From Escherichia coli (lineage in GTDB: Bacteria; Pseudomonadota; Gammaproteobacteria; Enterobacterales; Enterobacteriaceae): a stretch of DNA of 64,000 bases. The stretch lies in NCBI RefSeq assembly GCF_045037415.1, contig NZ_CP173438.1, one strand, 5' to 3'. The notes beneath the pieces were generated by a model. The model was not told the DNA's origin and did not search any database. It saw only the letters and a program-made list of their open reading frames with translations. Positions within the stretch are counted from its first letter, which is position 1; each line of letters opens with the position of its first letter. The position numbers and the translations under genes were made by a program. Shown here in pieces: positions 506 to 25,833 of this stretch.

Positions 506-3376
506 TTATATTTTTTCCAGCGCGGTGAGTATTTTCTCCGGTGTGAAATGCCATTCGCGTAACCAGATGCCGCAGGCATCGTGAATTGCGGTAGCAATCG
601 CCGGAGCTGCGCCATTTACACCGATTTCCGAGATCGATTTCGCCCCGAATGGGCCGACTTTATCGTCGCTCGGCACCAGCACAGCGCGGAAATCACGCGG
701 AATGTCACCAATTTTCGGTGCGCCGTAACTGCGTAAATCACGCGTTAACGGGTGACCTTCGGCGTCATAAATGATCTCTTCGCTCATACTGTGGCCGATA
801 GCACGCAGGGTGGCACCGTAGATTTGTCCCAACGCTAACTCTGGATTGACCGGTGTACCGCAGTCCAGCAAGGCGTAGAATTTATCCAGGCGGATTTCAC
901 CCGTACGCGTGTTGACGGCAACTTCAGCGAAGTTTGCGCCATACGGGAAGGCGAAATCAGGTGTGATATAACTGCCAGTTCCCACCAGTGAACCAAAGCC
1001 GGTGCCGGTTTCGCCTTTATGGGCTATCTCTCCGAAACTAACTTCGCCTTTCTTGCCGCGAACGACGCCCGGCGTTGCTAGTTGAACATCTGCCACTGGC
1101 TCACCCAATATTTGCGCGCCGTGGAACAGGATTTTCTCCCGCAGATTTTCCGCTGCCAAACGCGCAGCGTTACCCGAGAAGCAAGTACCGGACGAGGCAT
1201 ATGCGCCTTTATCAAACAGTGCATGATCGGTATCACCAGAGATAACATGCACGTCCTGCGGTGGGCAGTGCAGCACTTCTGCTGCCAGTTTGGTCACCAC
1301 AGTATCCAGACCAGTACCAATATCCGCACCACCGGAATGAACGATAAAGGTGCCATCCGATTCCAGTTTGATCATGCAGTTAGCCTGATCGATATCCGGG
1401 ATACCCGATTTCTGCATGATAATGGCGACGCCGCGACCGATGTGCCAGTCACCATTTTGCGGTTTTGGTGAAGACCATTGGATCATCTCGCGACCCTGAC
1501 GCAGGATCTCTTCCAGTGCGCAGCTGGCGGCGGAAGGAACGGAGGTCGGCGCTTTACCTTCACCGATTGCACCGAGAATTTTCAGCTCTTGCCCTTCGTG
1601 TACCCGGTTACGTTCGATAATTTCCAGTTGGTCGATCTGTAACTGTTCAGCCAGTTCCGCTAATGCCATGGTGATAGCGAAGTTACCTTTCGGTGCGCCA
1701 TAACCCTGATAAGCACCATTTGGGCAAATGTTGCTGTAGTAGGTGGTGACCTGAAAATCGACGTTATCGCATGGATATAACGGCAGCGACAGCGCCGGTC
1801 CGTTACACGGTACGGTGAGTGAGTGGTTACCGTAAGGACCCGTGTTGGCGCGGAAATCCATCTTCACTGCCGTCAGGCGACCATCTTTTTTCGCGCCCAG
1901 TTTGACGGTGACTTTCGCGACGTGACGAGAGGTGTTAGCAATAAACTCTTCTTCACGGGTGTAGCGGAAAAGTACCGGACGCCCGGTCACGCAGGTTGCC
2001 CAGGCGCACACTTCTTCCAGCAGGATGTCCTGTTTGGAACCAAAACCGCCGCCAACTCGCTCTTTAATGACATGAACTTTATGCTGTTTCATGCCCACGA
2101 GGCGCGCGACCTGGCGGCGTAAGTGCCATGGTACCTGGGTGGAGGCGTGGATCACCAGACGATCGCCGTCCATACGGGTAAAGCAGATATGTGTTTCAGT
2201 CGGGCACTGCTGTGCCTGCGTTGAATTATAGGTTCGCTCAATGATCACATCGGCATCGGCAAAGCCTTTGTCCATATCGCCAATATGACCATGAATACTG
2301 GCGGCGATATTTTTGCGTGGGCGAGAACCGATCGGGAAGTTGATGATCATATGCTCGCCGCGCTGGGCTGCATGGCTGTTATCATCTTCCAGAGTATCTG
2401 GCGCACCAGCAACATACACCACCGGTTCATCGTGCACGACAGGCGCATCTTCCGCCATTGCCTCGTCAATCGACATTACCGGCTTAAGCACTTCATATTC
2501 AACGTCGATGAGCTTCAGTGCTTCGAGCGCAATGTCTTCACTTTCGGCTACTACCGCAGCAACGCGATCGCCGACGTGACGCATTTTCTTGCCGAACATT
2601 CGGCGGTCAAGCGGTGACGGTTCCGGTGCGCTCTGACCACCCGGGGTATAGTAAATATCCGGGCAATTCAGGTGAGTAATAACGTGAACGACGCCCGGTA
2701 AGGCTTCAGCTTTGCTGACATCCAGATGAGTAATCAGTGCGTGAGCGTGTGGGCTACGTAACATTTTAATGACGCAGGCGTCAGCCGTTACGCGATCTTC
2801 AACATAGCAGGGTTTCGCCTGCACCATTTTCGCGGCATCAGTTTTAGGATAATGCTTGCCAATGACTTCAAGGTCGTCACGGAAAGTCGGAGCGATATCA
2901 ATGGTGGCCTGCGGATTATTTTTACGTGCAACCGCCAGTTCAATGACCTGATAGTATTGCTGCCAGCCAGCATCGCGGCTAAACAGACCTGAGAGTGCGT
3001 CGTCGATCTCTTCGCGGGTAGGTGCGTCGATGCGATCGAGAAGATCGGTGATAATCAGAGCCGCAGCTGGATCGTTATAACCAGACTGCACCACGCCAAC
3101 ATCAACCATGGCCTGTTGAACCAGACTTAACTCATTCCATTTGCCCAGAGATTCTGCGGTACGAATATCTGCCTTCTCTAACTGTGCGGCGATAAGCAAG
3201 GACGCGTTAACGATATTACCGTTAAAGATAATTGCGTCAGAACCGGCAAACCCAAAGCCATCATCACTGTTGCGTACAGAGTGCATTCCCATGTTAAACA
3301 ACAGCTTTTGCACGTTTTCGCCTGGATTAACGGTTAGCTCCTGAGGCGCGCCATTTAAAGTAAAGTGGATGATCAT
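506..3376 (-). CDS. xdhD: Molybdenum hydroxylase large subunit fused to a degenerate (Cys-less) ferredoxin-like N-terminal region; putative selenium-dependent purine hydroxylase XdhD (YgfN)
   Basis: 956-aa ORF, full-length match to my memory of E. coli XdhD. It is paralogous to XdhA in this window (aldehyde oxidase/xanthine dehydrogenase Mo-binding domains) and overlaps ygfM by 4 nt. Confidence 0.95.
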   Translation of the reverse strand: MIIHFTLNGAPQELTVNPGENVQKLLFNMGMHSVRNSDDGFGFAGSDAIIFNGNIVNASLLIAAQLEKADIRTAESLGKWNELSLVQQAMVDVGVVQSGYNDPAAALIITDLLDRIDAPTREEIDDALSGLFSRDAGWQQYYQVIELAVARKNNPQATIDIAPTFRDDLEVIGKHYPKTDAAKMVQAKPCYVEDRVTADACVIKMLRSPHAHALITHLDVSKAEALPGVVHVITHLNCPDIYYTPGGQSAPEPSPLDRRMFGKKMRHVGDRVAAVVAESEDIALEALKLIDVEYEVLKPVMSIDEAMAEDAPVVHDEPVVYVAGAPDTLEDDNSHAAQRGEHMIINFPIGSRPRKNIAASIHGHIGDMDKGFADADVIIERTYNSTQAQQCPTETHICFTRMDGDRLVIHASTQVPWHLRRQVARLVGMKQHKVHVIKERVGGGFGSKQDILLEEVCAWATCVTGRPVLFRYTREEEFIANTSRHVAKVTVKLGAKKDGRLTAVKMDFRANTGPYGNHSLTVPCNGPALSLPLYPCDNVDFQVTTYYSNICPNGAYQGYGAPKGNFAITMALAELAEQLQIDQLEIIERNRVHEGQELKILGAIGEGKAPTSVPSAASCALEEILRQGREMIQWSSPKPQNGDWHIGRGVAIIMQKSGIPDIDQANCMIKLESDGTFIVHSGGADIGTGLDTVVTKLAAEVLHCPPQDVHVISGDTDHALFDKGAYASSGTCFSGNAARLAAENLREKILFHGAQILGEPVADVQLATPGVVRGKKGEVSFGEIAHKGETGTGFGSLVGTGSYITPDFAFPYGANFAEVAVNTRTGEIRLDKFYALLDCGTPVNPELALGQIYGATLRAIGHSMSEEIIYDAEGHPLTRDLRSYGAPKIGDIPRDFRAVLVPSDDKVGPFGAKSISEIGVNGAAPAIATAIHDACGIWLREWHFTPEKILTALEKI

Positions 3377-4152
3377 ACGGCTTCCTCCCCAGCCTGTTGG
3401 CAGTCGGCATACAGGTCGGCTACCAGAACTCCCGTGATATAGCGTTTATAGGCCACGCTGCCCCGCAAATCTTCCTGCGGGAAAATGGCGTTGGCGACAG
3501 CCTGTTCCAGTGCATTGCCTTCCAGATTTTGAGTTTCAACATCATGCAGACGCAGTGCTTTACTGGCGACGCCATCCAGCGCAATTCGCATACCGTCGTG
3601 GTCTGTTATTGCAACGGCTGCCGTCACGACGGTTAAACCTGCCTGAGAACGGCTAATTTTGCGAGTCGCACAGGTGCGATACGGATCTTTAATGATAATT
3701 TCGGTTAACAGGCGATCGCATGGGCAGGCCAGGTAGTCCTCGATTGACAGCGTTTCGCCGTTGCCAAAAACCAGTTCAGCATCCAGTGCCAGCAGGACGG
3801 GAAGCAGCACTGACTCTTCTTGCCGGGCGGCAATTTCACCACCAATGGTCGACTGATTACGAACATGGCGAGAGTAGACAAAACCGAGAGCTTCCCGCAG
3901 TGCTGCAGGAATAAATCGCGCATCACGCAGTGGCTGCAAGCGAGACATTGCGCCAATTCGTAGTGCACCGTTATCCCAGTCAATCCAGTCCAGCTCCAGA
4001 TCCTGCAAGGAAATGGCAATCTTTTTATCGGTACGGGTTGGTGTAGCGTTGAGTTTGCTGCCCCCGGCGAACCAGACGGCTTCATCCTGGTAGCGGCGCT
4101 TCAGTTCCAGCGCCTGTTCGACAGAGTCGGGTCTGAAAAATTGTTCAATCAT
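3373..4152 (-). CDS. ygfM: FAD-binding subunit of a molybdenum hydroxylase (CO dehydrogenase flavoprotein-like) YgfM
   Basis: 259-aa ORF resembling XdhB/CoxM FAD-binding subunits (AGGSKL..., GGEIA motifs). It is translationally coupled to xdhD. Confidence 0.9.
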   Translation of the reverse strand: MIEQFFRPDSVEQALELKRRYQDEAVWFAGGSKLNATPTRTDKKIAISLQDLELDWIDWDNGALRIGAMSRLQPLRDARFIPAALREALGFVYSRHVRNQSTIGGEIAARQEESVLLPVLLALDAELVFGNGETLSIEDYLACPCDRLLTEIIIKDPYRTCATRKISRSQAGLTVVTAAVAITDHDGMRIALDGVASKALRLHDVETQNLEGNALEQAVANAIFPQEDLRGSVAYKRYITGVLVADLYADCQQAGEEAV

Positions 4153-4202
4153 CGTCTTTCCTTAATTTCCCCTCTTCTCTGAAAGAAGAGGGGAGCTGTT
4201 AT

Positions 4203-5531
4203 TTATGCCAGCGCATCCATCCGACGCCACATACTGGCAGCGGCTTTTCTGGCTTGCGCATAAATGGAATCGCAATCGAAGTTAAACTGACGGTCTTCAT
4301 AGACCATCACACCATTGACCATCACGCTGTGAACGCTACCTGAGCCCATACCGAAAGCGATATGCCCGGCGATATTGTCTGCCAGCAGCGGCGTCGGCGA
4401 GTTGTAATCGCAAATGGTTAAATCGGCTTTGTAACCGGCTTCCAGAAGCCCAAATTTCGCGCCAAAGTTGCGGCTCATCAGTTCGTTGCCGTTAGCCAGT
4501 GCTTTGGCAAAACTGTCAGGCCACAGCGGGCCACCCGCATCGCGATGTTTAAAGAAGGCAAATTTCATCTCTTCAAACATGTCCGAACCAATGCCGTCCG
4601 TTCCCAACGCCAGATTGCGGATGTCGCTAAGGTGATGGTTGTAGCCGACATGGTTGTTCATGTTTGAACGGGCGTTATGCACCAGGAACGCATCGCGCTG
4701 ATTGAGTAGGACGATGTCATCTTTCGACAGGTACAGCCCATGAGCGACCAGCGTTTTGCTGTCGATGAGATCGAATTGCGCAAGTCGTGCCAGCAGGTCT
4801 TTGCCGTACCAATGGTGACTGTAGGAAACGTCGTAAAGGTCTTCCGCAACGTGAATATGCAAACCACGACCTGTGCTTTTCACGGCTTCACGCAGCATCT
4901 CCAGACCGGCATCCGGCACGGTAAACGGCGCGTGAGCGCCGATATGTGCTTCCACCAGATACGGCTCGGTTGCTGCTTTCTTCGCCTCATCAATCTGACG
5001 GGTGAAGCGGATGTTTTCTTCTACACCTTCCTGCAACTCTTTGATGCCGTTGTTACGGTCAGTAGTTTCAAAACAGGTCATCGCGCGCAGGCCAACTTTT
5101 AAAAATGCGTTGCGCAATGTGGAGAGCGACCCGTCGATATACGCCGGAGAGGCATGGTGATCGATAACCGATGTACATCCGCTCTTAATCGCTTCCAGGG
5201 AACAAATCAGTCCGCTGTAATAGAGCGACTCTTCATCAAGAGCGCGATCGAGCCGCCACCAGAGATTTTTCAGCGTTGAGATGAAATCCGGGCAGGGGGC
5301 GATGTTTGCCATAATTCCGCGGGAAAGCCCCGAGTAAAAATGGTTGTGCGAGCAGACAATTCCCGGCATCACAATCCGACCATGCATCTCTTTGTAGCTG
5401 GCATCGGGGTAGCGTTGCGTCAGGGCATCGCCGATAGCGACAATCACATCATTTTCGATGGCGATATCAACGCCTTCCTGCACTTTCGCCGGGTGTAACT
5501 GCACTGCGGTGACATTCTTCAGAATCAACAT
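4203..5531 (-). CDS. ssnA: Amidohydrolase-superfamily protein SsnA (aminohydrolase/deaminase-like)
   Basis: 442-aa ORF with the HxH metal motif (CSHNHFYSG) typical of the guanine/cytosine-deaminase-like amidohydrolase fold. Recognised as E. coli SsnA. Its start codon lies 3 nt after the ygfK stop. Confidence 0.95.
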   Translation of the reverse strand: MLILKNVTAVQLHPAKVQEGVDIAIENDVIVAIGDALTQRYPDASYKEMHGRIVMPGIVCSHNHFYSGLSRGIMANIAPCPDFISTLKNLWWRLDRALDEESLYYSGLICSLEAIKSGCTSVIDHHASPAYIDGSLSTLRNAFLKVGLRAMTCFETTDRNNGIKELQEGVEENIRFTRQIDEAKKAATEPYLVEAHIGAHAPFTVPDAGLEMLREAVKSTGRGLHIHVAEDLYDVSYSHHWYGKDLLARLAQFDLIDSKTLVAHGLYLSKDDIVLLNQRDAFLVHNARSNMNNHVGYNHHLSDIRNLALGTDGIGSDMFEEMKFAFFKHRDAGGPLWPDSFAKALANGNELMSRNFGAKFGLLEAGYKADLTICDYNSPTPLLADNIAGHIAFGMGSGSVHSVMVNGVMVYEDRQFNFDCDSIYAQARKAAASMWRRMDALA

Positions 5532-5533
5532 GA

Positions 5534-8500
5534 TTACACCTCCACGCGGCCCAGCAGATAATGATGATGCTGGTGGACATGGCTAATGATGCGGCACATA
5601 TCGTTCAGCTCCGGTGGTACGTTGTTGAACTGACCTTCGCTGTCGATGTTTAACACCCAGCTTTGGTTATTCAGACGTACGCGTACCCGGCAATCTTCCA
5701 CAAGGAAGCCTGGGTTACTGCTGTTATCAAAGTCTTGCGACAGGCTGAAGACGGTGATTTTGTCTTTGTACGGTTTACCGTTCCACGGGCAGAATTGGGC
5801 GCAGTTGCCGCATTCGTTGCAGTAGGCATCGAGATGCAGCGTCTGGAAACGGTTCTGGAAGCCAGGAACCGCAATGGATACGTTGGCGCGGTTCGGGCAG
5901 ACATCCACACACTTGCTGCAAACGTAGTTACATTCAAGGCAGCGTGCGGCTTCCTGTGCGACAAACGCGTCACGATCGTCACTGTTCACCAGAGTGACAG
6001 AGATATCGCCTTTACGTTGATAGATTTCCGCCGGATTTACGTTGTTCCAGTATTTATCGTTCTGGTGGGAACGGATATTTTCCCGACTAAGGATGGTATC
6101 GGTCGCCCGACGCGCGGTTCCGACAGCAGCGACAATGGAGGATGGTCCGCGCTGTACGTCGCCGATCATAAAGACGTCAGTCAGACGCGTTTCGCCATTA
6201 TGGTCGACGTCTGGCCAGCCGTTTTTGTCCAGCGGCACGCCCATCGCATTCAGGGCTTCAGTATCCTGCTGTTCACCAATGGCGGTGATCAGACTGTCCA
6301 CATGCAGTGTTACTGTTTCGTTGGTTTCAACCGGACGGCGACGACCTTTCTCATCAGGTTCGCCAAGCGACATAACGCGCAAGGTTAAGGTGCCATCAGC
6401 ATCGAAACGTTCCGGATTATTCAGAAAACGGAACTCCACGCCGTCGTGCAACGCTTCTTCATACTCTTCGCGCCATGCGGGCATTTCTTGCAGTGAACGA
6501 CGGTAAACGACCGTTGCTTTTTCTACGCCTGGAACGCGTAACGCCGCACGAGCGCAGTCCATTGCGGTGTTACCCGCCCCGACAACGACCACATGTTTGC
6601 CCAGCTTGAGCGCGGTGCCCTTGTTGTATTCACGCAGGAAAGGGAGTGATTTCCAGACATTTTGGTTGTCGCCCGCCAGTTTCACACCGCTATTTTTATC
6701 AGTGCCGGTGGCAATCAGAACATAGTGGAAGCCCTGATTTTTTAACTGTTCAACGGTCAAATCGGGTGAGCAACCGTACTCAAATTTCACGCCGTGAGCG
6801 GCAACAAAATCGATATCGTGCTGAATTAACTCTGCAGGAATACGGAACTGAGGAATGATATTTTTCACCACGCCGCCCGCATTGGCTTCGCGTTCAAACA
6901 GCGTGACCGGATGGCCCGCTCTGGCAAGGAAGTAACCTGCGGCCAGACCCGCCGGACCTGCACCAATCACGGCTACCGGATGGCGTGAACCGGAACCGGC
7001 TGGTTTGTGCCAGCGTTGCTTATATTCATCCCAACCTTTTTCCAGGGCGACTTTTTTCAGTTCGCGGATATTCAGCGCACTGTCGTAATCCAGGCGGGTA
7101 CAGTTGTATTGGCACTGGTGATCGCAAATATGACCGGTAATGGCGGGCAGGGCGTTGCGTTGATAGATGAGTTCCAGCGCGTCGGCATAGCGGTGTTCGC
7201 CAAGCAGACGGATGTATTCCGGAATATCTTGCTTGATAGCGCAGGCAGTAACACAGGGGGCAACGTAGCAATCGGTCAGCGGCAGGTCTTCAGCCACTTC
7301 AATACGCTCTTCTGGCTTCCAGTGTTTCTGGGTGTATTCCATGGTTAACGCGTCTGCTGCCAGTCTGTTCAGTCGTTCGACGTCAACGTGGTTAAGCTCC
7401 CAGGCGTCGGAGCCTTCCAGCTCGCGCATGCAGGCACTTAAGCGCAGATAGCCGCCAGGTTTCAGCAGGTCGGTTGCCATAGTAATAGGGCGAATACCAG
7501 TATCAAAAATATCGCGGATAGTCAGCTGACTGGCACCACCGGAATAAGAAATGGGCAGTTTGCCGTCAAAGGCGCGAGAGAGAACTGCTGCAACGTTGAT
7601 GGAGAGCGGGAACAGCGCACGGCCTGACATATACATCTCTTCACCGGGCAGTGCGCCTTTATTGTTGATGGTGCCGAGAGTGTTAGTCAGTTTTACGCCA
7701 AAGCCGAGTGATTTTTCTTTTGCCAGTGCCATCAGGCGTTCCAGCATTTCCAGTGCTTGCGTCAGCTTGAGGTCGTGATCAAATGACTCTTCTTTTAAGC
7801 CGATGTAACCGAAACCGCAGACATCGAGGATCTCACGAACACGCGCGTACCCCAGTAAGGTCGGGTTGAGTTTCACAAAGGTGTTGAGTCCTTTTTCTTC
7901 CAGCATGTAGCGGCAAATGGCTTCGATTTCATGCGGAGGACAGCCGTGCATGGTGGAGAGGGTAACACCTTGTACCATGCTGGTGGGGATGCGAGCGGGT
8001 AAGGCTTGCAAGCTTTCGCGTTTTTCCTGCAATCCGTGGCGGGCTAAAAATGCCTCATCCTGGAGTAGCTTATTAAGTGCATCGCGGTATTGAGCGAATT
8101 TCGGATGGTCAGATGCGTCCATCATATTGTCGATGAACTGCTGCATCGGCGGTTGCTTAATACCTTCGAGGTTGTAACCGACGCTCATATTAAAGATGAA
8201 CGATTTACCGGAATCAGAAGGCTGGAACATCGCTTCGAGAAGGTGCAGGGCAAACCAGGCTTTGAGGTATTCATCCCAGGCTTTAAGCAGGGTAAATTCG
8301 GTAGACCATTCGGTGTTAAAGCACTCGTCTTCGGCATCGATACAGGGCTTTTCCAGCTCCAGACGGTCAAGAATTTGGACGGTTTTTAGTTCGATGAAGC
8401 GTCCGCCAGTCAGCCAGGAAGTGACAATATTTTGCGCGAGTTGCGTGTGCGGGCCAGCGGCAGGGCCGACGGGAGTGGCACAGGTTTCACCGAAGACGCT

Positions 8501-8632
8501 AACAGTTTTACTTTTTACGGGTGAGTAAAACTGTTGCTCGGGAATACCAAAGATTGAGCGTTGTTGTTGGTATTCATCAAATATGCGCGTCAAAAGTTCC
8601 TCAAACGGAATGGGACGCATAATATCCCCCAT
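5534..8632 (-). CDS. ygfK: Large Fe-S flavoprotein YgfK: N-terminal DPD/PyrD-like barrel + GltD/PreT-like NAD(P)H/FAD module + C-terminal 2x[4Fe-4S] ferredoxin
   Basis: 1032-aa ORF. It contains dinucleotide folds VAVIGAGPAGLAAG and VVVVGAGNTAMD, the GltD-like Cys cluster CYVAPCVTAC...CDHQCQYNC, and the C-terminal motifs CSKCVDVCP and CNECGNCAQFCP. Recognised as E. coli YgfK. Confidence 0.95.
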   Translation of the reverse strand: MGDIMRPIPFEELLTRIFDEYQQQRSIFGIPEQQFYSPVKSKTVSVFGETCATPVGPAAGPHTQLAQNIVTSWLTGGRFIELKTVQILDRLELEKPCIDAEDECFNTEWSTEFTLLKAWDEYLKAWFALHLLEAMFQPSDSGKSFIFNMSVGYNLEGIKQPPMQQFIDNMMDASDHPKFAQYRDALNKLLQDEAFLARHGLQEKRESLQALPARIPTSMVQGVTLSTMHGCPPHEIEAICRYMLEEKGLNTFVKLNPTLLGYARVREILDVCGFGYIGLKEESFDHDLKLTQALEMLERLMALAKEKSLGFGVKLTNTLGTINNKGALPGEEMYMSGRALFPLSINVAAVLSRAFDGKLPISYSGGASQLTIRDIFDTGIRPITMATDLLKPGGYLRLSACMRELEGSDAWELNHVDVERLNRLAADALTMEYTQKHWKPEERIEVAEDLPLTDCYVAPCVTACAIKQDIPEYIRLLGEHRYADALELIYQRNALPAITGHICDHQCQYNCTRLDYDSALNIRELKKVALEKGWDEYKQRWHKPAGSGSRHPVAVIGAGPAGLAAGYFLARAGHPVTLFEREANAGGVVKNIIPQFRIPAELIQHDIDFVAAHGVKFEYGCSPDLTVEQLKNQGFHYVLIATGTDKNSGVKLAGDNQNVWKSLPFLREYNKGTALKLGKHVVVVGAGNTAMDCARAALRVPGVEKATVVYRRSLQEMPAWREEYEEALHDGVEFRFLNNPERFDADGTLTLRVMSLGEPDEKGRRRPVETNETVTLHVDSLITAIGEQQDTEALNAMGVPLDKNGWPDVDHNGETRLTDVFMIGDVQRGPSSIVAAVGTARRATDTILSRENIRSHQNDKYWNNVNPAEIYQRKGDISVTLVNSDDRDAFVAQEAARCLECNYVCSKCVDVCPNRANVSIAVPGFQNRFQTLHLDAYCNECGNCAQFCPWNGKPYKDKITVFSLSQDFDNSSNPGFLVEDCRVRVRLNNQSWVLNIDSEGQFNNVPPELNDMCRIISHVHQHHHYLLGRVEV

Positions 8633-8711
8633 AACCCTCTCCTTAGCTTATACAGATATCATTGAGTGACCGGTGTTGAGAAATCCGGTGGTTTAGGGGG
8701 ATAGAGCAACA

Positions 8712-8731
8712 ATCGCACCACTCTTGCCAGG
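8712..8731 (-). promoter_or_regulatory. Candidate sigma54 (-24/-12) promoter for ygfK-ssnA-ygfM-xdhD
   Basis: The minus strand reads cCTGGCAAGAGTGGTGCGa. GG and GC have the correct GG-N10-GC spacing of TGGCAC-N5-TTGCW. The site is about 85-100 nt upstream of the ygfK ATG, and a sigma54 activator gene (ygeV) lies in the cluster. Confidence 0.35.
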
Positions 8732-12079: not shown

Positions 12080-12087
12080 ATGAAAAT

Positions 12088-12113
12088 GGCCGGATGGTAT
12101 TACCCATCCGGCC
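12088..12113. terminator. Bidirectional hairpin between convergent yqeB and yqeA
   Basis: GGCCGGATGG-tatta-CCCATCCGGCC, about a 10-bp GC-rich stem, occupying nearly the whole 40-bp convergent gap. Confidence 0.6.
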
Positions 12114-12119
12114 TTTAAA

Positions 12120-13052
12120 TTACTGACAAATCACCGTTCCGGTTTTGCCTTCAATCCCTTCTTTCGCTTTGCTCAATACGGTAATCAGTGCTTCACGACC
12201 TGCGCGAGAGCGAGCAAACGAGGCGGCAGCTTCCACTTTAGGCAGCATAGAACCTTTCGCAAAATGACCTTCTTCGATAAAGCGTTCAGCATCACTTAAT
12301 GACAGGCGATCGAGCCACTGTTCATTCTCTTTTCCGAAGTTAATGGCCACTTTTTCTACCGCAGTCAGAATGATCAGCATATCGGCATCGATCATTTCTG
12401 CTAAACGGGCACTGGCCCAGTCTTTATCGATAACCGCGCTGGCACCACGCAGATGGTTACCTTCACGAATAACAGGGATACCACCACCGCCAACGGTGAT
12501 CACCACCTGTCCGGCATCTACCAGAGCTTTAACCGTTTCTTTTTCAATGATATCAACCGGTTTTGGCGAAGCAACGACACGACGATAGCCGCGACCCGCA
12601 TCTTCTTTCAGAGTGTAACCCTGTTTTGTCAGTAGCTCTGCTTCTTGCTCGGTAAAGAACGAACCAATCGGCTTGGTCGGGTTGAGGAATGCCGGATCGT
12701 TAGCATCGACTTCGACCTGGGTAACCAGCGTTGCTACAGGTTTATTAATGCCACGAGAAAGCAGTTCTTCTCTTAAGGCGTTTTGTAGATCGTAACCAAT
12801 ATAACCCTGGCTTAAGGCAACACAGACAGACATCGGCAGCATTGGCGAGTGCGCTTCAGTTTTTGCGGCAGCTTCAAAGGCCTGGTTAATCATGCCCACC
12901 TGTGGCCCGTTGCCATGAGTGACGATGACCTCATGTCCCTGGGCAATTAAATCAACAATTGCCTGAGAAGTAATTTTTACCGCTTTCATTTGTCCGGCCA
13001 GGTCATCGCCCAGCGCATTCCCGCCCAGGGCGAGAACAATTTTCTTACTCAT
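12120..13052 (-). CDS. yqeA: Carbamate kinase-like protein YqeA
   Basis: 310-aa ORF with a carbamate kinase family N-terminus (KIVLALGGNAL...HGNGPQVG). Recognised as E. coli YqeA. Confidence 0.95.
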   Translation of the reverse strand: MSKKIVLALGGNALGDDLAGQMKAVKITSQAIVDLIAQGHEVIVTHGNGPQVGMINQAFEAAAKTEAHSPMLPMSVCVALSQGYIGYDLQNALREELLSRGINKPVATLVTQVEVDANDPAFLNPTKPIGSFFTEQEAELLTKQGYTLKEDAGRGYRRVVASPKPVDIIEKETVKALVDAGQVVITVGGGGIPVIREGNHLRGASAVIDKDWASARLAEMIDADMLIILTAVEKVAINFGKENEQWLDRLSLSDAERFIEEGHFAKGSMLPKVEAAASFARSRAGREALITVLSKAKEGIEGKTGTVICQ

Positions 13053-13099
13053 TTTTCCTCACTCATCATTCTTGATTGTGTATAGATCCCTGGCAGTGG

Positions 13100-14485
13100 T
13101 TAGAGCACGGGAGGGACAAACGGTTTGCGTCGCAGGAAACGACCTCGCCCGGCTTTGCCTGTAAAGGTGCCGTCGCAGAAAATCGTTTCACCACGGGATA
13201 AGGTTCTGACAATCGCGCCCTGACAGGTAAAACCCTCCCATGGCGAGTAGTCAGCGTTGTCGTGGAGATGGCGATGCTGAATTTGTTGGCTCTGACGTGG
13301 GTCTATAATCACCACGTCGCCATCGGAACCGGGCGCTAATAATCCTTTTTGTGGCCACAGGCCAAACAGCCTGGCGGGCATTGCACTGGTTAACTCAACA
13401 AAACGCTCCGGTGAGATACGCCCCGTCATCACGCCACTGGAGAACAGCAGTTGCATGCGGTTCTCCACACCGGGTAAGCCATTTGGGCAGCGGCTGAAAT
13501 CGCCTTTAGAAATTTGCAGGCGTTGAGCCATCGAGAAGGTGCAGTGATCGGTTGCCACCACGTCAATCGCACCATCGCTGATGCCACACCACAGTTTGTC
13601 CTGCTCGCGTACGTTACGCAGCGGTGGGCTAAGAATGAACTTCATGCCATCTTCTGTATCGTAACTGCGTTCGTCCAACAGGAGATATTGTGGGCAGGTT
13701 TCAACCCAGACTGGCTGGTGATTCGCACGGGCAAGACGCAGATAATCCAGACCTAAGCCGTTAGACAGGTGCACGATATAGAGCGGGGCGTTACCGGCAA
13801 TTTGTGCCAGGTTAATCATGCGGGCGATGGCTTCCGCTTCGCATTCCAGAGGTCGACTCAAGGCATGATAACGCGGCGCGGTTAACCCTGCGGCGATAAA
13901 CTCCGCCCGCTTGCTGGCGATAGCTGCGTCATTTTCCGGGTGCACGGTGGTCAGCGCGCCGGACTCATGCAAGCGGCGTAATGCCTGCAACACTTCATCA
14001 TCGTTGAGTTTATATTGATAGGTTAAATAGAGTTTAAAACTGCTCAGTCCTTCCTCAACCATCATCGGAATTTCGTCGAGGATAGCGTGATTAATATGTT
14101 GAATGACACCGTGAAAGCTGTAGTCGATGACTGCTTTGTGGGCGGCATAACCGCGATAAACTTCCAGTTGATGGCGTAACCGGCAGCCATTTGGGCCAAA
14201 TCCCATATGGTCAATAATGGTTGTTGTACCGCCACACGCAGCTGCGCGGGTACCGGTAAAAAAATCATCACAACTGCGCGCGATGCCGACATCAATATTG
14301 AAATGCGTATGGACATCCACGCCGCCAGGGAAAACGTAACAGCCAGAGGCATCAATTTCTTCGCAAGGGAGTTGCGGCGAAATATCGGTACCCAACTGGC
14401 GAACAATCCCGCTTTCAATCAGCAAATCCTGCTTCGCCTGTCCATCTGCATTAACAACAATGCCGTTTTTTATCAATACGCGCAT
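13100..14485 (-). CDS. hyuA: D-phenylhydantoinase / dihydropyrimidinase-family cyclic amidohydrolase HyuA (YgeZ)
   Basis: The track ORF is 465 aa from a TTG. I take the ATG at 14485 (MRVLIKNGIVV..., 461 aa), which is preceded by GGAG. The HxH motif GGVDVHTHF is present. Recognised as E. coli HyuA. Confidence 0.93.
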   Translation of the reverse strand: MRVLIKNGIVVNADGQAKQDLLIESGIVRQLGTDISPQLPCEEIDASGCYVFPGGVDVHTHFNIDVGIARSCDDFFTGTRAAACGGTTTIIDHMGFGPNGCRLRHQLEVYRGYAAHKAVIDYSFHGVIQHINHAILDEIPMMVEEGLSSFKLYLTYQYKLNDDEVLQALRRLHESGALTTVHPENDAAIASKRAEFIAAGLTAPRYHALSRPLECEAEAIARMINLAQIAGNAPLYIVHLSNGLGLDYLRLARANHQPVWVETCPQYLLLDERSYDTEDGMKFILSPPLRNVREQDKLWCGISDGAIDVVATDHCTFSMAQRLQISKGDFSRCPNGLPGVENRMQLLFSSGVMTGRISPERFVELTSAMPARLFGLWPQKGLLAPGSDGDVVIIDPRQSQQIQHRHLHDNADYSPWEGFTCQGAIVRTLSRGETIFCDGTFTGKAGRGRFLRRKPFVPPVL

Positions 14486-14495
14486 AGCAAACTCC

Positions 14496-14520
14496 AAAAA
14501 CCCTCCGGTGAACCGGAGGG
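14496..14520 (-). terminator. Intra-operon intrinsic terminator/attenuator-like hairpin between ygeY and hyuA
   Basis: The minus strand reads CCCTCCGG-ttca-CCGGAGGG followed by TTTTT, and this runs directly into the hyuA Shine-Dalgarno GGAG. Confidence 0.55.
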
Positions 14521-14537
14521 GAATAAGTGAAGAGTAA

Positions 14538-15749
14538 TTATTCGGTTGCCAGCCAGCTTAATGGGATTGCAGCGTACATAGCGGCACAGGTTACCAGGTG
14601 AGATTTCCAGGTTTTTTCGTTTGGCGCGTGCGCTTCCGGTTCTTTACCGGGGCCAAAACCGATGACCGGAATGCCGTGGCGACCCATGATGGATACGCCA
14701 TTAGTCGAGAAGGTCCACTTATCAACGACAGGCGCTTTACCAAACAGCCCTTCATAAGCATTCACCAGTGCTTTAACGGTGAAGTGATCTTCTTCCACTT
14801 TCCAGGTCGGGAAGTAGCATTCGGTTGGGTAAACCAGGCCAGTCCAGGACGGGCGGTCGTAGTTGTACATAGAAACGACAGCATTCGCTTTTTGTACTGC
14901 AGGCAGGGCACGGATCTCGTCCAGCGCGCCTTCCCAGGTTTCGCCCCAGGTCAGACGACGGTCGATTGAAACTGCGCAGCTGTCTGCGACAGCGCAACGG
15001 CTTGGGGAGGTGAAGAAAATTTCAGAAACGGTGAGGGTGCCTTTGCCGAGGAATTCGTCATAACCCAGACGTTGGGAGAGTTCTTGTAATTCGCCAAGAA
15101 TCGGACCCATTTTGAAAATGGCGTTATCACCGCGTTCTGGTGCCGAACCGTGGCAGCTAACACCCTGAACATCAATACGAATTTCCATACGACCGCGTTG
15201 ACCACGGTATACCTGGCAGTCGGTTGGTTCGGTACTGACCACAAATTCCGGGCGAATGCCGGATTGTTCAATAATGTACTGCCAGCACAGGCCGTCGCAG
15301 TCTTCTTCCTGCACAGTACCGGTAACCAGCAGGGTATATTCATCTTCCAGACCGAGATCTTTAATGATTTTACCGGCATATACCATAGACGCCATGCCGC
15401 CTTCCTGGTCGGAAGTACCACGACCACCGATCAGCTCGTCGGTTTCCATGCCTTCATACGGATCGAAGTCCCAGTTTTTGATGTTGCCAATGCCGACTGT
15501 ATCGATATGAGCGTCCATTGCCACCAGACGCGGGCCGTGGCCGATATAACCGAGAACGTTGCCCATTGGGTCGATTTCAACTTTATCGAAGCCGACTTTT
15601 TCCATCTCTTCTTTAATACGATGTACTACGCGTTTCTCGTCGCAGCTTTCACTGGGAATAGCAACCATATCGCGCAGGAAGCGAGTCATGTCTGCCTGGT
15701 AATCTTTTGCTTTTTCAAGAATCAGTTTGAATGGAATATTCTTAGCCAT
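14538..15749 (-). CDS. ygeY: M20-family (ArgE/DapE/CPG2-like) metallo-hydrolase YgeY
   Basis: 403-aa ORF with M20 peptidase motifs (AHIDTV, SDQEGG, GTVQEED). Recognised as E. coli YgeY. Confidence 0.95.
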
Positions 15750-15806
15750 TATTTTTCTCCAGATTTTTTACTCCCCGTTTTGCAGGGAGCAGTTCCAATA
15801 GGGTGA

Positions 15807-17003
15807 TTAAGGTGCTACAGCGTGTTTGCCTTCCCAGACAACTTCGCGGTAGTGCTTCACGTCGGTGTCGCCTTCAGTGCTGATAACCAGCACCACGGCA
15901 TCTTTGTTCAGCGCCAGTTTTTCCATCAGGCTTTGACGTTGCGGGTGATAATGAACCGCTGCGAGAACGCCCAAACCGACAGCGCCGGATTCACCGGAGA
16001 TGATGCGCGGGTCGTTGCCGTACGGATTACCCAGCACGCGCATACCTAATGCGGCAACGCTGTCCTGGCAGGAGATGAATTGGGTGGCGCAGTTACGTAG
16101 GATTTCCCAGCCCAGCGGGTTAGGTTCGCCGCAGGCCAGGCCCGCCATGATGGTGGCCATATCACCGCCAACGTTGACGATGTCGCCTTTGACGCCGGAG
16201 CGATAAATACAGTCAGCTTTGTCAGGTTCAACAATAATGCTGTGCAGATTTTGCGGGCTATAGACGTCGACCAGATAACCCAGCACACCACCGGCCATTG
16301 CACCGACACCTGCTTGCAGCAGAACGTGTGTCGGGGTTACGCCCATTTCACGCATTTGCTCGACGGCTTCATCCGCCAGTGTTGCGTAGCCTTGCATGAT
16401 CCAGGTTGGGATTTTGGTGTAACCTTCCCATGCCGTGTCCTGTACCACTTCCCAGCCGTGCTGCTGCGCGTGTTGCATGGTCAGGCGAACGGTATCGTCA
16501 TAGTTCATATCCGTGACGATGCACTCGGCACCGAGGTTTAGAATGGCGTCAACGCGTTCCTGAGCAGAACCTTTCGGCATGTAAATCACCGCATTCTGTC
16601 CGAGTTGCTGAGCGGCCCATGCCACACCGCGCCCGTGGTTGCCGTCGGTGGTGGTCGCGAAAGTCATTTTTTCGCCAATGGCATTTTTCAGGTGCTCAAA
16701 TGATAGCGTTTCGATATCAAGATGATATTTTTCACACAATAATTGAGCGATGGCGTATGCGCCGCCGAGCATTTTGAAGGCGTTCAGACCGAAGCGTTTT
16801 GATTCGTCCTTAACGAGAATTTTCTTTACACCAAACAGGTTTGCGAGATCGTCCAGCGCACAAAGCGGTGTTGGGCGATAACCAGCAATTTTCTGGTGGA
16901 ACTGGCGTGCCAGTTTTGCCTGGCTTTGCGAAAAAAGCGGTGATGTTTCGCCGTTGAAAAATTTGTTATCGGCGATATCAATCTTTAATGAGAAAACGGA
17001 CAT
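15807..17003 (-). CDS. ygeX: PLP-dependent 2,3-diaminopropionate ammonia-lyase YgeX (DpaL)
   Basis: 398-aa ORF with the PLP-lysine context GLNAFKMLGG. Recognised as E. coli YgeX/DpaL. Confidence 0.95.
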   Translation of the reverse strand: MSVFSLKIDIADNKFFNGETSPLFSQSQAKLARQFHQKIAGYRPTPLCALDDLANLFGVKKILVKDESKRFGLNAFKMLGGAYAIAQLLCEKYHLDIETLSFEHLKNAIGEKMTFATTTDGNHGRGVAWAAQQLGQNAVIYMPKGSAQERVDAILNLGAECIVTDMNYDDTVRLTMQHAQQHGWEVVQDTAWEGYTKIPTWIMQGYATLADEAVEQMREMGVTPTHVLLQAGVGAMAGGVLGYLVDVYSPQNLHSIIVEPDKADCIYRSGVKGDIVNVGGDMATIMAGLACGEPNPLGWEILRNCATQFISCQDSVAALGMRVLGNPYGNDPRIISGESGAVGLGVLAAVHYHPQRQSLMEKLALNKDAVVLVISTEGDTDVKHYREVVWEGKHAVAP

Positions 17004-17060
17004 ATCCTATCCTTTTGGCCTCTGGAAATAGAGGGCCGACCAGCTGATCGGCCCGAGGGG

Positions 17061-18251
17061 TTATTTCACGCGTTCTTGCGCTTCTTTCAGCAGTTGCTCG
17101 AGCAGTGCACCTGGTTTGGCGTATTTACGGGACAGGATCATCGCGGCGATGATATAAGGCTTCCAGCTGGCTTCTTTGTAGGTAGCGATACGGTATTTTT
17201 CGAATACGCCTTCAGTCACTTCACCTTCTTTGCAGGATACGCCGCTGATATCAGCTGGCAGGCAGTGCATGTACAGGGCTTCGCCATCACGGGTCAGCTC
17301 CATCATCTCTTCGGTACAATGCCAGTCTTTGTGCTGTGCGTTCTGTGCCAGACACTGTTTTTCCAGCGCTTTCAGTCCTTCGTGATCGTTCGCACGCAGC
17401 AGTTCAGTACGCTCTTCCATCACTTTGTAAGGTGCCCAGGACTTCGGATAAACGATGTCTGCGTCTTTGAAGGCTTCTTCCATGCTGGTGACCTGACGGA
17501 AGCTACCACCGGAGGCTTTAGCATTGTTTTTAGCAACTTCAACGACATCCGGGATCAGGTCGTAGCCTTCCGGATGGGCCAGGGTGACATCCATACCGAA
17601 GCGGGTCATCAGACCGATGATGCCTTGTGGTACAGAGAGCGGTTTGCCATAGCTTGGGGAGTAGGCCCAGGTCATGGCGATTTTTTTACCTTTCAGGTTT
17701 TCCAGTGAACCAAAGTGTTCACGTAACCATGCCAGATCAGCCATTGATTGAGTCGGGTGGTCAATATCGCATTGCAGGTTCACTAAAGCCGGACGCTGCG
17801 GCAGCACACCCTGCTTGTAACCGTCATCAAGTGCAGCGCCAACTTCACGCATATAGGCGTTGCCTGCGCCCAGATACATATCGTCGCGAATACCGATAGC
17901 GTCAGCGCAGAAGGAGATCATATTGGCGGTTTCACGCACGGTTTCGCCGTGAGCGATTTGTGATTTACCTTCGTCAAGATCTTGTTGTGCAAGGCCGAGC
18001 AGGTTAAGCGCGGAAGCATAAGAGAAGCGGGTACGGGTGGAATTGTCGCGGAATACGGAAATACCTAATCCACTATTAAAGACTTTGGTTGAGATGTTTT
18101 CAGCACGCAGTGCTTTTAACGCGGCGGCAACGTCCAGTACTTGTTTCAGTTCGTCTGGCGTCTGTTCCCACGTTAACAAAAAATCTTTTTCATGCAGGTG
18201 AGAGGTCAGCGAATTGATATCCTTAATCAGCTCATTAACAGTTTTCATCAT
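17061..18251 (-). CDS. ygeW: Knotted carbamoyltransferase YgeW (ATCase/OTCase fold, physiological substrate unresolved)
   Basis: 396-aa ORF with the carbamoyl-phosphate binding STRTR motif (NSTRTRFS) and HCLP motif (MHCLPA). Recognised as E. coli YgeW. Confidence 0.95.
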   Translation of the reverse strand: MMKTVNELIKDINSLTSHLHEKDFLLTWEQTPDELKQVLDVAAALKALRAENISTKVFNSGLGISVFRDNSTRTRFSYASALNLLGLAQQDLDEGKSQIAHGETVRETANMISFCADAIGIRDDMYLGAGNAYMREVGAALDDGYKQGVLPQRPALVNLQCDIDHPTQSMADLAWLREHFGSLENLKGKKIAMTWAYSPSYGKPLSVPQGIIGLMTRFGMDVTLAHPEGYDLIPDVVEVAKNNAKASGGSFRQVTSMEEAFKDADIVYPKSWAPYKVMEERTELLRANDHEGLKALEKQCLAQNAQHKDWHCTEEMMELTRDGEALYMHCLPADISGVSCKEGEVTEGVFEKYRIATYKEASWKPYIIAAMILSRKYAKPGALLEQLLKEAQERVK

Positions 18252-18340
18252 AAAGTCCCGATAGTGGAATGACAGGCAAAGTGGTTTATTTCACTGTGAC
18301 GTGCCAAAGTGATTGGTGTTTTCACAGCTATACCTCGGAC

Positions 18341-18358
18341 TAACAATAAGTGTGCCAG
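18341..18358 (-). promoter_or_regulatory. Candidate sigma54 promoter for the ygeW-ygeX-ygeY-hyuA-yqeA operon
   Basis: The minus strand reads TGGCAC-actta-TTGTT, a perfect -24 element with correct spacing, but the -12 is TTGT rather than TTGC. It is about 95 nt upstream of the ygeW ATG. A second GTGCCA at 18301..18306 has a poorer -12. Confidence 0.25.
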
Positions 18359-18609
18359 AATTATCCACGCGGCTGCGAAAGGCTAATTTGACGGATAATG
18401 TGTGGGGTTGATCACATATTGATGCCAGTTTCCGGTTGTTTGTAAAATACGAAAACGTTTGGCTTTTTTTATTACGTTATTTATTTGCTGCTAAGTATCA
18501 GAAATAAGATAAAGAGGCAGGCTATCTCTCTTCAGTTTGATAAACTTGCCGCTGTAATTCTCATATTGATATAGAAATGTGATATCTCTTCCATAATTTT
18601 ATTAGAAAG

Positions 18610-18634
18610 TGATAAAAATCTTATGTTTTTATCA
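18610..18634. promoter_or_regulatory. Perfect 9-bp inverted repeat in the ygeW/ygeV divergent control region (possible operator/UAS)
   Basis: TGATAAAAA-tcttatg-TTTTTATCA, about 95 bp upstream of the ygeV ATG. The function is not known to me. Confidence 0.3.
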
Positions 18635-18726
18635 AAGCCAATTTCGCCTGAGTTAATATCATCATGATCTGTGAACCATCAACGTCTTCAATGATCGACT
18701 TTTAAGTAAGTCTGGAAGGTAAAGCT

Positions 18727-20505
18727 ATGGAGCTTGCGACTACGCAGTCAGTATTGATGCAAATTCAACCAACAATTCAGCGTTTTGCCAGAATGCTTGC
18801 CAGCGTTTTGCAGCTTGAGGTTGAGATCGTTGATGAAAACTTGTGTCGCGTCGCCGGAACGGGCGCGTATGGGAAGTTTCTTGGCCGCCAGTTGAGCGGC
18901 AACTCACGTCTGCTCCGCCACGTCCTGGAAACGAAAACTGAAAAAGTTGTGACACAGTCTCGCTTCGATCCCCTTTGTGAAGGTTGCGATAGTAAAGAAA
19001 ATTGCCGCGAAAAAGCATTTCTGGGTACGCCAGTCATTTTACAGGATCGTTGTGTTGGGGTGATAAGTTTGATTGCCGTTACCCACGAGCAACAAGAACA
19101 TATCAGTGATAATTTACGCGAATTTTCCGATTACGTTCGCCATATATCCACCATTTTTGTTTCTAAACTTCTGGAGGATCAGGGACCAGGAGATAACATC
19201 AGTAAAATATTCGCGACCATGATCGATAATATGGATCAGGGCGTGTTAGTGGTTGATGCTGATAATCGGGTTCAGTTTGTTAATCAGACAGCTTTAAAAA
19301 CACTCGGTGTTGTACAAAATAATATTATTGGAAAACCTGTTCGTTTCAGACCATTAACATTTGAGAGTAATTTTACCCATGGTCATATGCAACATATTGT
19401 TTCGTGGGATGATAAAAGTGAATTAATCATTGGTCAGTTGCATAACATCCAGGGCCGACAACTATTTTTAATGGCGTTTCACCAATCGCATACCAGTTTT
19501 TCTGTAGCAAATGCACCTGATGAACCGCATATTGAACAATTGGTTGGCGAGTGCCGTGTTATGCGGCAATTAAAACGACTCATTAGCCGTATTGCACCCA
19601 GCCCATCCAGCGTTATGGTGGTTGGTGAAAGCGGCACGGGTAAAGAAGTCGTCGCCCGTGCAATCCATAAGTTGAGCGGAAGACGGAATAAACCCTTTAT
19701 TGCTATCAACTGTGCCGCGATTCCGGAACAGCTTCTGGAGAGCGAACTGTTCGGTTATGTTAAAGGCGCATTTACTGGCGCTTCTGCCAACGGTAAAACA
19801 GGGTTGATTCAGGCGGCGAATACGGGCACGCTGTTTCTCGATGAAATTGGTGATATGCCATTAATGTTGCAGGCTAAATTACTGCGCGCTATTGAGGCGC
19901 GTGAAATTCTGCCGATTGGTGCCAGTAGCCCAATACAAGTCGACATCCGCATCATTTCTGCAACTAATCAGAATTTGGCCCAGTTCATTGCCGAAGGTAA
20001 ATTCCGCGAAGATCTCTTCTACCGACTTAATGTTATCCCGATAACTCTTCCACCGCTGCGTGAACGTCAGGAAGATATTGAATTACTAGTGCATTACTTT
20101 TTACATCTGCATACCCGTCGTCTGGGATCGGTTTATCCTGGCATTGCTCCTGATGTCGTCGAAATATTGCGTAAGCATCGTTGGCCCGGAAACCTGCGCG
20201 AGTTAAGCAATTTGATGGAATATCTGGTTAACGTTGTTCCTTCAGGTGAAGTTATCGACAGCACGCTATTGCCGCCAAATCTGCTGAATAATGGCACAAC
20301 GGAGCAAAGTGATGTAACAGAGGCCAGTGAGGCGCACCTGTCACTCGATGATGCGGGCGGCACGGCGCTGGAAGAGATGGAAAAGCAAATGATCCGCGAG
20401 GCGCTTTCACGTCATAACAGCAAGAAGGAAGTTGCTGATGAACTGGGCATCGGCATTGCTACGCTCTATCGCAAGATTAAGAAATATGAGTTGTTAAACA
20501 CATAA
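18727..20505 (+). CDS. ygeV: Sigma54-dependent transcriptional activator YgeV (N-terminal sensor + PAS + AAA+ + HTH)
   Basis: 592-aa ORF with Walker A GESGTGKE, the sigma54-contact GAFTGA motif (KGAFTGAS) and a C-terminal Fis-type HTH (IGIATLYRKIKKY). Recognised as E. coli YgeV. Confidence 0.95.
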   Translation: MELATTQSVLMQIQPTIQRFARMLASVLQLEVEIVDENLCRVAGTGAYGKFLGRQLSGNSRLLRHVLETKTEKVVTQSRFDPLCEGCDSKENCREKAFLGTPVILQDRCVGVISLIAVTHEQQEHISDNLREFSDYVRHISTIFVSKLLEDQGPGDNISKIFATMIDNMDQGVLVVDADNRVQFVNQTALKTLGVVQNNIIGKPVRFRPLTFESNFTHGHMQHIVSWDDKSELIIGQLHNIQGRQLFLMAFHQSHTSFSVANAPDEPHIEQLVGECRVMRQLKRLISRIAPSPSSVMVVGESGTGKEVVARAIHKLSGRRNKPFIAINCAAIPEQLLESELFGYVKGAFTGASANGKTGLIQAANTGTLFLDEIGDMPLMLQAKLLRAIEAREILPIGASSPIQVDIRIISATNQNLAQFIAEGKFREDLFYRLNVIPITLPPLRERQEDIELLVHYFLHLHTRRLGSVYPGIAPDVVEILRKHRWPGNLRELSNLMEYLVNVVPSGEVIDSTLLPPNLLNNGTTEQSDVTEASEAHLSLDDAGGTALEEMEKQMIREALSRHNSKKEVADELGIGIATLYRKIKKYELLNT

Positions 20506-25797: not shown

Positions 25798-25833
25798 GGA
25801 TGGTTCAAAATTGAAGCAATTTTGAACCATCCA
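25798..25833 (-). terminator. Intrinsic terminator of yqeG
   Basis: Perfect 16-bp stem GGATGGTTCAAAATTG / CAATTTTGAACCATCC with a 4-nt loop, 10 nt after the yqeG stop. On the minus strand it is followed by cagTTTTc. Confidence 0.6.

Follow-up and report, generated by a model that had tools for sequence, protein, structure and literature searches.

Which pathway is served by five adjacent genes that together encode a carbamoyltransferase, a 2,3-diaminopropionate ammonia-lyase, an M20 hydrolase, a hydantoinase and a carbamate kinase, and from how many promoters are they transcribed? This question is raised by ygeW, ygeX, ygeY, hyuA and yqeA in a stretch of 64,000 nucleotides from Escherichia coli (NCBI RefSeq assembly GCF_045037415.1, contig NZ_CP173438.1), which is referred to as the window in the following. 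The five genes lie head-to-tail on the minus strand (18251..12120) and contain no internal stop codons. Their products form the lower half of a pathway that breaks down uric acid anaerobically and reductively (the 2,8-dioxopurine or 'yanthine' pathway), a role that was demonstrated in 2025 and is already known. Taken as a whole, this role with the enzyme steps described below, combined with one transcript that would be driven by a YgeV-activated sigma-54 promoter, is in our judgement very probably the correct description of the locus. The genes are:

18251..17061, minus strand: ygeW, 396 amino acids, carbamoyltransferase of the predicted knotted type, open reading frame (ORF) intact
17003..15807, minus strand: ygeX (dpaL), 398 amino acids, pyridoxal 5'-phosphate (PLP)-dependent 2,3-diaminopropionate ammonia-lyase, ORF intact
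15749..14538, minus strand: ygeY, 403 amino acids, M20 (ArgE/DapE-like) amidohydrolase, ORF intact
14485..13100, minus strand: hyuA, 461 amino acids from the ATG, D-hydantoinase-type cyclic amidohydrolase, ORF intact
13052..12120, minus strand: yqeA (arcC-type), 310 amino acids, carbamate kinase, ORF intact

The gaps between ygeW and ygeX, ygeX and ygeY, ygeY and hyuA, and hyuA and yqeA measure 57, 57, 52 and 47 bp, respectively. If hyuA is started at an alternative in-frame TTG at position 14497, its product has 465 residues and the gap to ygeY shrinks to 40 bp. An earlier note on this DNA, made from the sequence alone, had described five co-directional genes separated by 40-57 bp, which is borne out by the ORF limits, the lower value applying only with the TTG start of hyuA. 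At its 5' end ygeW reads ATGATG (18246-18251). The K-12 annotation takes the first ATG (396 amino acids), whereas in other strains RefSeq starts at the second one (18248, 395 amino acids), and residue 2 is where the alignment to the family model begins.

The role of the cluster was established in two independent studies. Liu et al. (bioRxiv 10.1101/2025.04.24.650524) combined 13C-urate tracing, mutants of C. sporogenes and of E. coli K-12, and recombinant K-12 enzymes. Mutant metabolomics and in vitro reconstitution gave them the order HyuA, YgeW, YgeY, YgeX; pathway mutants in ygeW, ygeX, ygeY and hyuA accumulate intermediates, and 2,3-diaminopropanoate, the substrate of YgeX, builds up in ygeX mutants. 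YgeW and YqeA together formed ATP from 2,3-diureidopropanoate in the presence of Mg and ADP, neither enzyme did so alone, and the authors likened this step to the arginine deiminase pathway (bioRxiv 10.1101/2025.04.24.650524). Independently of Liu et al., the E. coli route was rebuilt in vitro by Li et al. (PMC12507026). There, urate is first reduced to 2,8-dioxopurine ('yanthine') by XdhD-YgfM, this compound is dearomatised and its six-membered ring opened by YgfK and SsnA, which yields ureidomethyl-hydantoin, HyuA cleaves this hydantoin, YgeW performs a phosphate-dependent cleavage, and YgeY and YgeX lead on to pyruvate (PMC12507026). Both 2025 studies are the subject of a commentary (PMC12990295). 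In earlier genetic work, E. coli mutants in ygeW, ygeX, ygeY and hyuA were already found to be impaired in the formation of labelled acetate from urate.

These experiments were performed with K-12 proteins whose sequences match, fully or almost fully, those encoded here. Positions 1-25564 are reverse-colinear with positions 3,024,691-2,998,947 of K-12 MG1655 at 97% identity, and the K-12 counterparts of the five genes are annotated as ygeW, ygeX, ygeY, hyuA and yqeA (b2870-b2874). YgeW, YgeX and YgeY do not differ from the K-12 proteins by a single amino acid, HyuA differs by seven and YqeA by one (eight in total). At the nucleotide level 192 changes separate the five genes from those of K-12; 161 codons differ, 153 of them synonymously, and in ygeW, ygeX and ygeY taken together 110 synonymous codon differences are found without any amino-acid change. 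Of the 213 nt in the four spacers (within 13053-17060) only one has changed, in a hairpin loop, as compared to 2-4% in the coding DNA. Given this low spacer divergence and the absence of substitutions in YgeW, YgeX and YgeY, strong constraint appears to act on these three proteins and on the intergenic spacers. The stretch belongs to the ordinary E. coli chromosome: 5178 of the 5426 complete E. coli genomes contain matches of 90-100% identity to 12120-18251, and in 5160 of the 5426 at least 80% of it is present.

In the lower half of the pathway, the ring of ureidomethyl-hydantoin is opened by HyuA to give 2,3-diureidopropionate, from which YgeW, with phosphate, releases one of the ureido groups as carbamoyl phosphate. 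YqeA then converts carbamoyl phosphate and ADP to ATP and carbamate; each urate provides one ATP by this substrate-level phosphorylation, which also pulls the unfavourable YgeW phosphorolysis forward. YgeY hydrolyses the second ureido group to leave 2,3-diaminopropionate, and YgeX finally converts the latter to pyruvate and two molecules of NH3. The earlier note had anticipated an ATP-yielding carbamoyl branch formed by the YgeW/YqeA pair as well as 2,3-diaminopropionate as an intermediate; both agree with the published data, with ATP formation from 2,3-diureidopropanoate (bioRxiv 10.1101/2025.04.24.650524) and with diaminopropionate as the last intermediate, which YgeX turns into pyruvate (bioRxiv 10.1101/2025.04.24.650524; PMC12507026). 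The view that YgeW is an orphan enzyme with an unknown second substrate is outdated, because its substrate was identified in 2025 as 2,3-diureidopropionate. The reasoning of the note is sound, but it rediscovers the 2025 publications.

The family membership of the proteins was assessed with NCBIfam profiles and their curated cut-offs, with Pfam domains and by comparison with PDB chains. All five proteins exceed the curated NCBIfam cut-offs and Pfam agrees, so that the five family identities previously read from the translations hold. YgeW scores 825 bits with NF005538 (cut-off 453) and 676 bits with TIGR03316 (cut-off 500), residues 2-396 being covered, and contains the Pfam domains OTCace_N and OTCace. 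It carries STRTR (71-75) and HPTQ (165-168), the motifs that bind carbamoyl phosphate, and HCLP (329-332), the motif of the second domain; STRTR and HCLP are thus intact, as had been noted before. Its best PDB match, over the full length, is 3Q98; apart from the YgeW-family structures 3Q98 and 2YFK, the best solved structures are N-acetylornithine carbamoyltransferases (AOTCases). The paper on the 3Q98 protein is titled 'a knotted ancestral catabolic transcarbamylase' (reference 25 in PMC11326118). The identity with K-12 YgeW and the full-length top match to 3Q98 suggest that the fold of YgeW contains the trefoil knot.

For YgeX, 651 bits were obtained with the diaminopropionate ammonia-lyase model TIGR03528 (cut-off 532), and 4D9G is the best PDB match over the full length. 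The protein carries Lys77, Asp120 and Asp189, which, in the residue numbering of the E. coli enzyme, we take to be the PLP lysine and the catalytic aspartates. YgeY (Pfam Peptidase_M20 and M20_dimer) reaches 722 bits with TIGR03526, the YgeY-family selenium-metabolism-linked M20 hydrolases (cut-off 322), and 184 bits with the ArgE/DapE subfamily model, below the cut-off of 218; no solved structure matching it at E <=1e-40 was found in the PDB. HyuA scores 668 bits with the D-hydantoinase/dihydropyrimidinase model TIGR02033 (cut-off 393), shows the HxH metal motif as HTH at residues 59-61, and has D-hydantoinases as its nearest PDB chains (about 1e-108). YqeA (Pfam AA_kinase) scores 385 bits with the arcC carbamate kinase model TIGR00746 (cut-off 358), and its nearest PDB chains are the carbamate kinases 1B7B and 1E19 (about 1e-89).

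Two older functional readings of these genes have to be weighed against the urate pathway. A catabolic transcarbamoylase and a carbamate kinase in the vicinity of purine genes are formally reminiscent of the allantoin/oxalurate branch, in which YgeW would be the oxamate transcarbamoylase and YqeA its carbamate kinase, and oxamate was among the candidate amines listed for YgeW in the earlier note. However, oxamate had given a negative result in a previous substrate test of YgeW (2011 work, via PMC11326118), AllFGH is the enzyme that really serves E. coli as oxamate transcarbamoylase (PMC11326118), and the substrate of YgeW is 2,3-diureidopropionate (bioRxiv 10.1101/2025.04.24.650524; PMC12507026). 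This reading is refuted by the cited enzyme assays, and we consider it to have practically no chance of being right. Hardly more credible is the picture conveyed by older annotations, according to which the genes are a loose set that scavenges exogenous D-hydantoins or N-carbamoyl-D-amino acids, with YgeX detoxifying 2,3-diaminopropionate, independently of urate. The product names used in K-12 and RefSeq ('phenylhydantoinase' for HyuA, '2,3-diaminopropionate ammonia-lyase') and the likeness of HyuA to industrial D-hydantoinases would fit it. Mutants in ygeW, ygeX, ygeY and hyuA are, however, impaired in the conversion of urate to acetate and accumulate pathway intermediates, the linked genes xdh, ygfK and ssnA stand under a common regulator with the cluster, and diaminopropionate does not support growth of E. 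coli (Liu et al., bioRxiv 10.1101/2025.04.24.650524). Scavenging of hydantoins is contradicted by the isotope-tracing data.

When the urate pathway is compared with known systems, the closest relative is the same locus in K-12, where the b2870-b2874 cluster has 97% nucleotide identity and the same sigma-54 site; the differences are at the strain level only, the window lacking a REP-like insert with a duplicated yqeA-yqeB hairpin and an ETT2 remnant next to glyU, both described below. The arginine deiminase pathway (ArcB and ArcC) resembles the YgeW/YqeA pair in that a ureido compound is cleaved by phosphate to give carbamoyl phosphate, from which a carbamate kinase makes ATP. Furthermore, YgeW has the domains of the ornithine/aspartate carbamoyltransferase fold, and YqeA passes the arcC equivalog model. 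The substrate, on the other hand, is citrulline there and urate-derived 2,3-diureidopropionate here, and YgeW, which belongs to a knotted subfamily of its own, reaches only 133 bits with the ornithine carbamoyltransferase model TIGR00658, below the cut-off of 281. Genes for arginine deiminase and for an arginine/ornithine antiporter are absent among the five genes and their immediate neighbours. Judged from these comparisons, the YgeW/YqeA system parallels the arginine deiminase pathway in its energy-conserving step without belonging to it. In the oxalurate branch (AllFGH and carbamate kinase), carbamoyl phosphate is likewise formed by phosphorolysis of a purine-derived ureido compound (PMC11326118). 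AllFGH differs in that it is encoded by three genes, has no similarity to the ornithine/aspartate carbamoyltransferase family, uses another substrate and is encoded at another locus (PMC11326118).

The two 2025 studies disagree on one detail, which weighs against a fully specified version of the enzyme steps. According to Liu et al. YgeW takes the 3-ureido group, leaving 3-amino-2-ureidopropanoate (bioRxiv 10.1101/2025.04.24.650524), whereas according to Li et al. it takes the 2-ureido group, leaving albizziin (PMC12507026); the commentary counts the choice of the ureido group as unsettled (PMC12990295). The nearest structures of YgeW outside its own family are AOTCases, and the broader family nearest to YgeY comprises the ArgE/DapE N-alpha-deacylases. 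The substrate of AOTCases is a diamino acid acylated at N-alpha, and the reaction takes place at its terminal amine. In the Xanthomonas-type arginine route, a terminal-amine transcarbamoylase (AOTCase) is followed by an N-alpha deacylase (ArgE), an arrangement that would fit the order reported by Liu et al. The present pathway differs from this route in being catabolic and running in the reverse direction, and its N-alpha group would be carbamoyl and not acetyl. By this analogy we lean weakly towards cleavage of the 3-ureido group. Both proteins score under the cut-offs of the families concerned (YgeW 129 bits with the AOTCase model, cut-off 288; YgeY with the ArgE/DapE model as given above), and the analogy cannot settle the regiochemistry.

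The second part of the question concerns transcription. The following features were located 5' of ygeW:

18342..18358, minus strand: sigma-54 promoter (-24/-12) of ygeW, CTGGCACACTTATTGTT, about 90-105 nt 5' of the ygeW ATG, found by motif scan
18401..18416, no strand assigned: CRP-like site, TGTGATCAACCCCACA, one mismatch to TGTGA-N6-TCACA, 5' of the sigma-54 promoter
18727..20505, plus strand: ygeV, 592 amino acids, divergent sigma-54-dependent activator and presumed regulator of the cluster, colinear with K-12 b2869

The promoter sequence CTGGCACACTTATTGTT is identical to the K-12 site OS30, a sigma-54 site that was detected by chromatin immunoprecipitation sequencing (ChIP-seq) and assigned to ygeW (PMC4591121). 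In addition, genomic SELEX (systematic evolution of ligands by exponential enrichment) showed binding of the RpoN holoenzyme to the spacer between ygeV and ygeW. According to Li et al. (PMC12507026), Crp has a native binding site between ygeV and ygeW, and uricolysis is repressed by glucose. The CRP-like site at 18401-18416 fits both reports, and we infer that it is the same site. The YgeV iModulon includes ygeW, ygeX, ygeY and hyuA (PMC10602906). A repeat search of 18252-18726 for upstream activator sites of YgeV yielded only weak, imperfect AT-rich repeats, to none of which this function is assigned.

For a comparative view, 80 loci encoding relatives of YgeW were collected, one genome per species. 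Of the 80, 45 have the genes in the order ygeW-ygeX-ygeY-hyuA-yqeA, and together with the window these give 46 loci from Enterobacterales, Aeromonas, Vibrionaceae and Shewanella. A sigma-54 motif (at most one mismatch, 80-250 bp from the gene) stands 5' of ygeW in 33 of these 46, and none of the 46 has such a motif within 400 bp 5' of ygeX, ygeY, hyuA or yqeA. In nearly all 33 motif-bearing loci the -12 element (18342-18346 in the window) is TTGT, TTGA or TTGG and not the consensus TTGC, so the non-consensus state of this element is itself conserved. The genes hyuA and yqeA overlap or are at most 12 bp apart in 20 of the 46 loci. Taken together, the restriction of the sigma-54 motif to ygeW and the closeness of hyuA and yqeA favour a single sigma-54 promoter that would serve all five genes, with read-through; gaps of 47-57 bp also leave no room for an internal promoter. 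Transcription would start at the YgeV-activated promoter at 18342-18358, would be modulated by CRP and would cover the five genes, ending at the terminator at 12088-12113.

The following hairpins were located in the spacers:

17033..17054, minus strand: hairpin after the ygeW stop codon, GC-rich, 9 bp, weak T tail, TCTATTTCC, stem -18 kcal/mol
15769..15791, minus strand: hairpin after the ygeX stop codon, 9 bp, without a T tract, z -2.79
14496..14520 (stem 14501-14520), minus strand: hairpin between ygeY and hyuA, 8-bp GC stem CCCTCCGG-TTCA-CCGGAGGG, followed by TTTTT
12088..12113, no strand assigned: strong bidirectional terminator hairpin between the convergent genes yqeA and yqeB, 10 bp, -23 kcal/mol, z -7.26

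The ygeW hairpin is identical in K-12 and is stable, yet not significant when compared to dinucleotide shuffles (z = -1.07). For the ygeY hairpin, which abuts the ribosome-binding site of hyuA, z is -3.31 and none of 200 shuffles folds equally well. Most genera have hairpins in the positions of those after ygeW and ygeY, but with stems that differ greatly in sequence, and 77% of 30 ygeY-hyuA spacers have z < -2; the ygeX hairpin is less well conserved across genera than these two. No structure was found in the hyuA-yqeA spacer. A generic scan of the region gave two sigma-70-like sites against 8.1 expected from shuffles and eight terminator-like sites against 7.2. Because neither count is enriched, the hairpin calls rest on position, z-scores and recurrence across species.

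Several points speak against a single five-gene transcript. The ygeY hairpin with its T5 run looks, in E. coli, like an intrinsic terminator, and Lamoureux et al. (PMC10602906) name the transcription unit the 'ygeWXY' operon. yqeA is not in the YgeV iModulon list, and direct evidence for a transcript covering all five genes was not found in the literature: the operon structure in E. coli is not discussed by Liu et al. or Li et al., and the polar effects of ygeW and ygeX insertions refer to C. sporogenes only (bioRxiv 10.1101/2025.04.24.650524). An alternative with the same biochemistry would be two units, a ygeWXY message ending at the hairpin and T5 run at 14496-14520 and a hyuA-yqeA message from a promoter inside the 3' part of ygeY. 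The stability of that hairpin, the 'ygeWXY' wording and the missing yqeA would all be accommodated by it. However, the YgeV iModulon groups hyuA with ygeWXY, none of the 46 loci offers a sigma-54 motif within 400 bp 5' of hyuA or yqeA, no promoter-like site was found 5' of hyuA by a sigma-70 consensus scan, and in other genera the hairpin is kept while the T run is not. We therefore regard two separate units as unlikely, without dismissing them. The five-gene operon proposed in the earlier note is a candidate arrangement and not an established one: the conserved single sigma-54 motif and the short gaps speak for it, the terminator-like ygeY hairpin and the 'ygeWXY' naming against it.

With transcription of all five genes from the ygeW promoter, the ygeW hairpin and, even more so, the ygeY hairpin could serve as partial terminators or mRNA stabilisers, so that the ygeWXY message would be more abundant than the hyuA-yqeA message. 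That these two hairpins are intercistronic elements grading YgeW, YgeX and YgeY above HyuA and YqeA is a tentative proposal, somewhat more doubtful than not, and the same applies, as a separate matter, to cleavage of the 3-ureido group by YgeW. If true, either would leave the known pathway unchanged.

Among all 80 loci, ygeV is divergent to ygeW in 47; ygeY adjoins ygeW, either immediately or with ygeX between them, in 72; and in 52 yqeA is found no more than 10 kb from ygeW. Across phyla the identity of YgeW to the E. coli protein is 70-100%. Metagenome-assembled genomes of Rifleibacteriota, Bacteroidota, Verrucomicrobiota and Spirochaetota encode YgeW proteins 70-78% identical to that of E. 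coli, usually directly 3' of a ygeY homologue; ygeX and hyuA were mostly not detected in the flanks of these distant loci, which cover at most 10 kb and are often shortened by contig ends. The conserved core thus appears, from gene order, to be ygeY-ygeW, sometimes accompanied by yqeA or ssnA.

The pathway is the means by which gut bacteria remove about one third of human urate, the part that is excreted into the intestine, and it provides the bacterium with ATP; probiotics that carry it are being engineered against hyperuricaemia and gout. This significance belongs to the literature of 2023-2025, to which the window adds only an intact and, as it appears, strongly constrained copy. The residual questions are small, namely the regiochemistry of YgeW and how the transcripts are organised around the conserved hairpins.

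The genes for the upper half of the pathway and their control sites are also present in the window:

506..8632, minus strand: upper-half pathway genes ygfK (5534-8632), ssnA (4203-5531), ygfM (3373-4152) and xdhD (506-3376)
8705-8721: ygfK sigma-54 site, just beyond 506..8632, identical to the ChIP-seq site OS31 (PMC4591121)
8784-8799: ygfK CRP site, just beyond 506..8632, perfect consensus, TGTGAATGAACTCACA

The ORF lengths of these genes match the K-12 annotation, with which they are colinear at 97%. A sigma-54 site upstream of xdhA (24261-24277) has one mismatch to the published ChIP-seq site. The ygfK and xdhA sigma-54 sites and the perfect CRP site fit a YgeV/sigma-54 regulon under catabolite control.

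Some differences in the surroundings distinguish individual E. coli strains. The yqeA/yqeB spacer of the window (12080-12119) has 40 bp and a single hairpin; in K-12 (3012394-3012613) it has 220 bp, and the hairpin is duplicated, flanking an insert of about 150 nt that resembles repetitive extragenic palindromic (REP) or bacterial interspersed mosaic elements (BIME). Further away, yqeG, yqeF and kduI come immediately after glyU, which encodes tRNA-Gly(CCC) and lies at 25453-25526 (window 25453-27072); the remnant of the ETT2 type III secretion island that lies beside glyU in K-12 (ygeQ back to yqeH) is absent in this strain. Finally, while the copy in the window is uninterrupted, genomes that are otherwise 100% identical to 12120-18251 carry insertion sequences in the cluster: ISEc52 interrupts ygeY in E. 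coli U12A-U15A (annotation checked for U15A), and IS26 interrupts the carbamate kinase gene in E. coli isolate 131.

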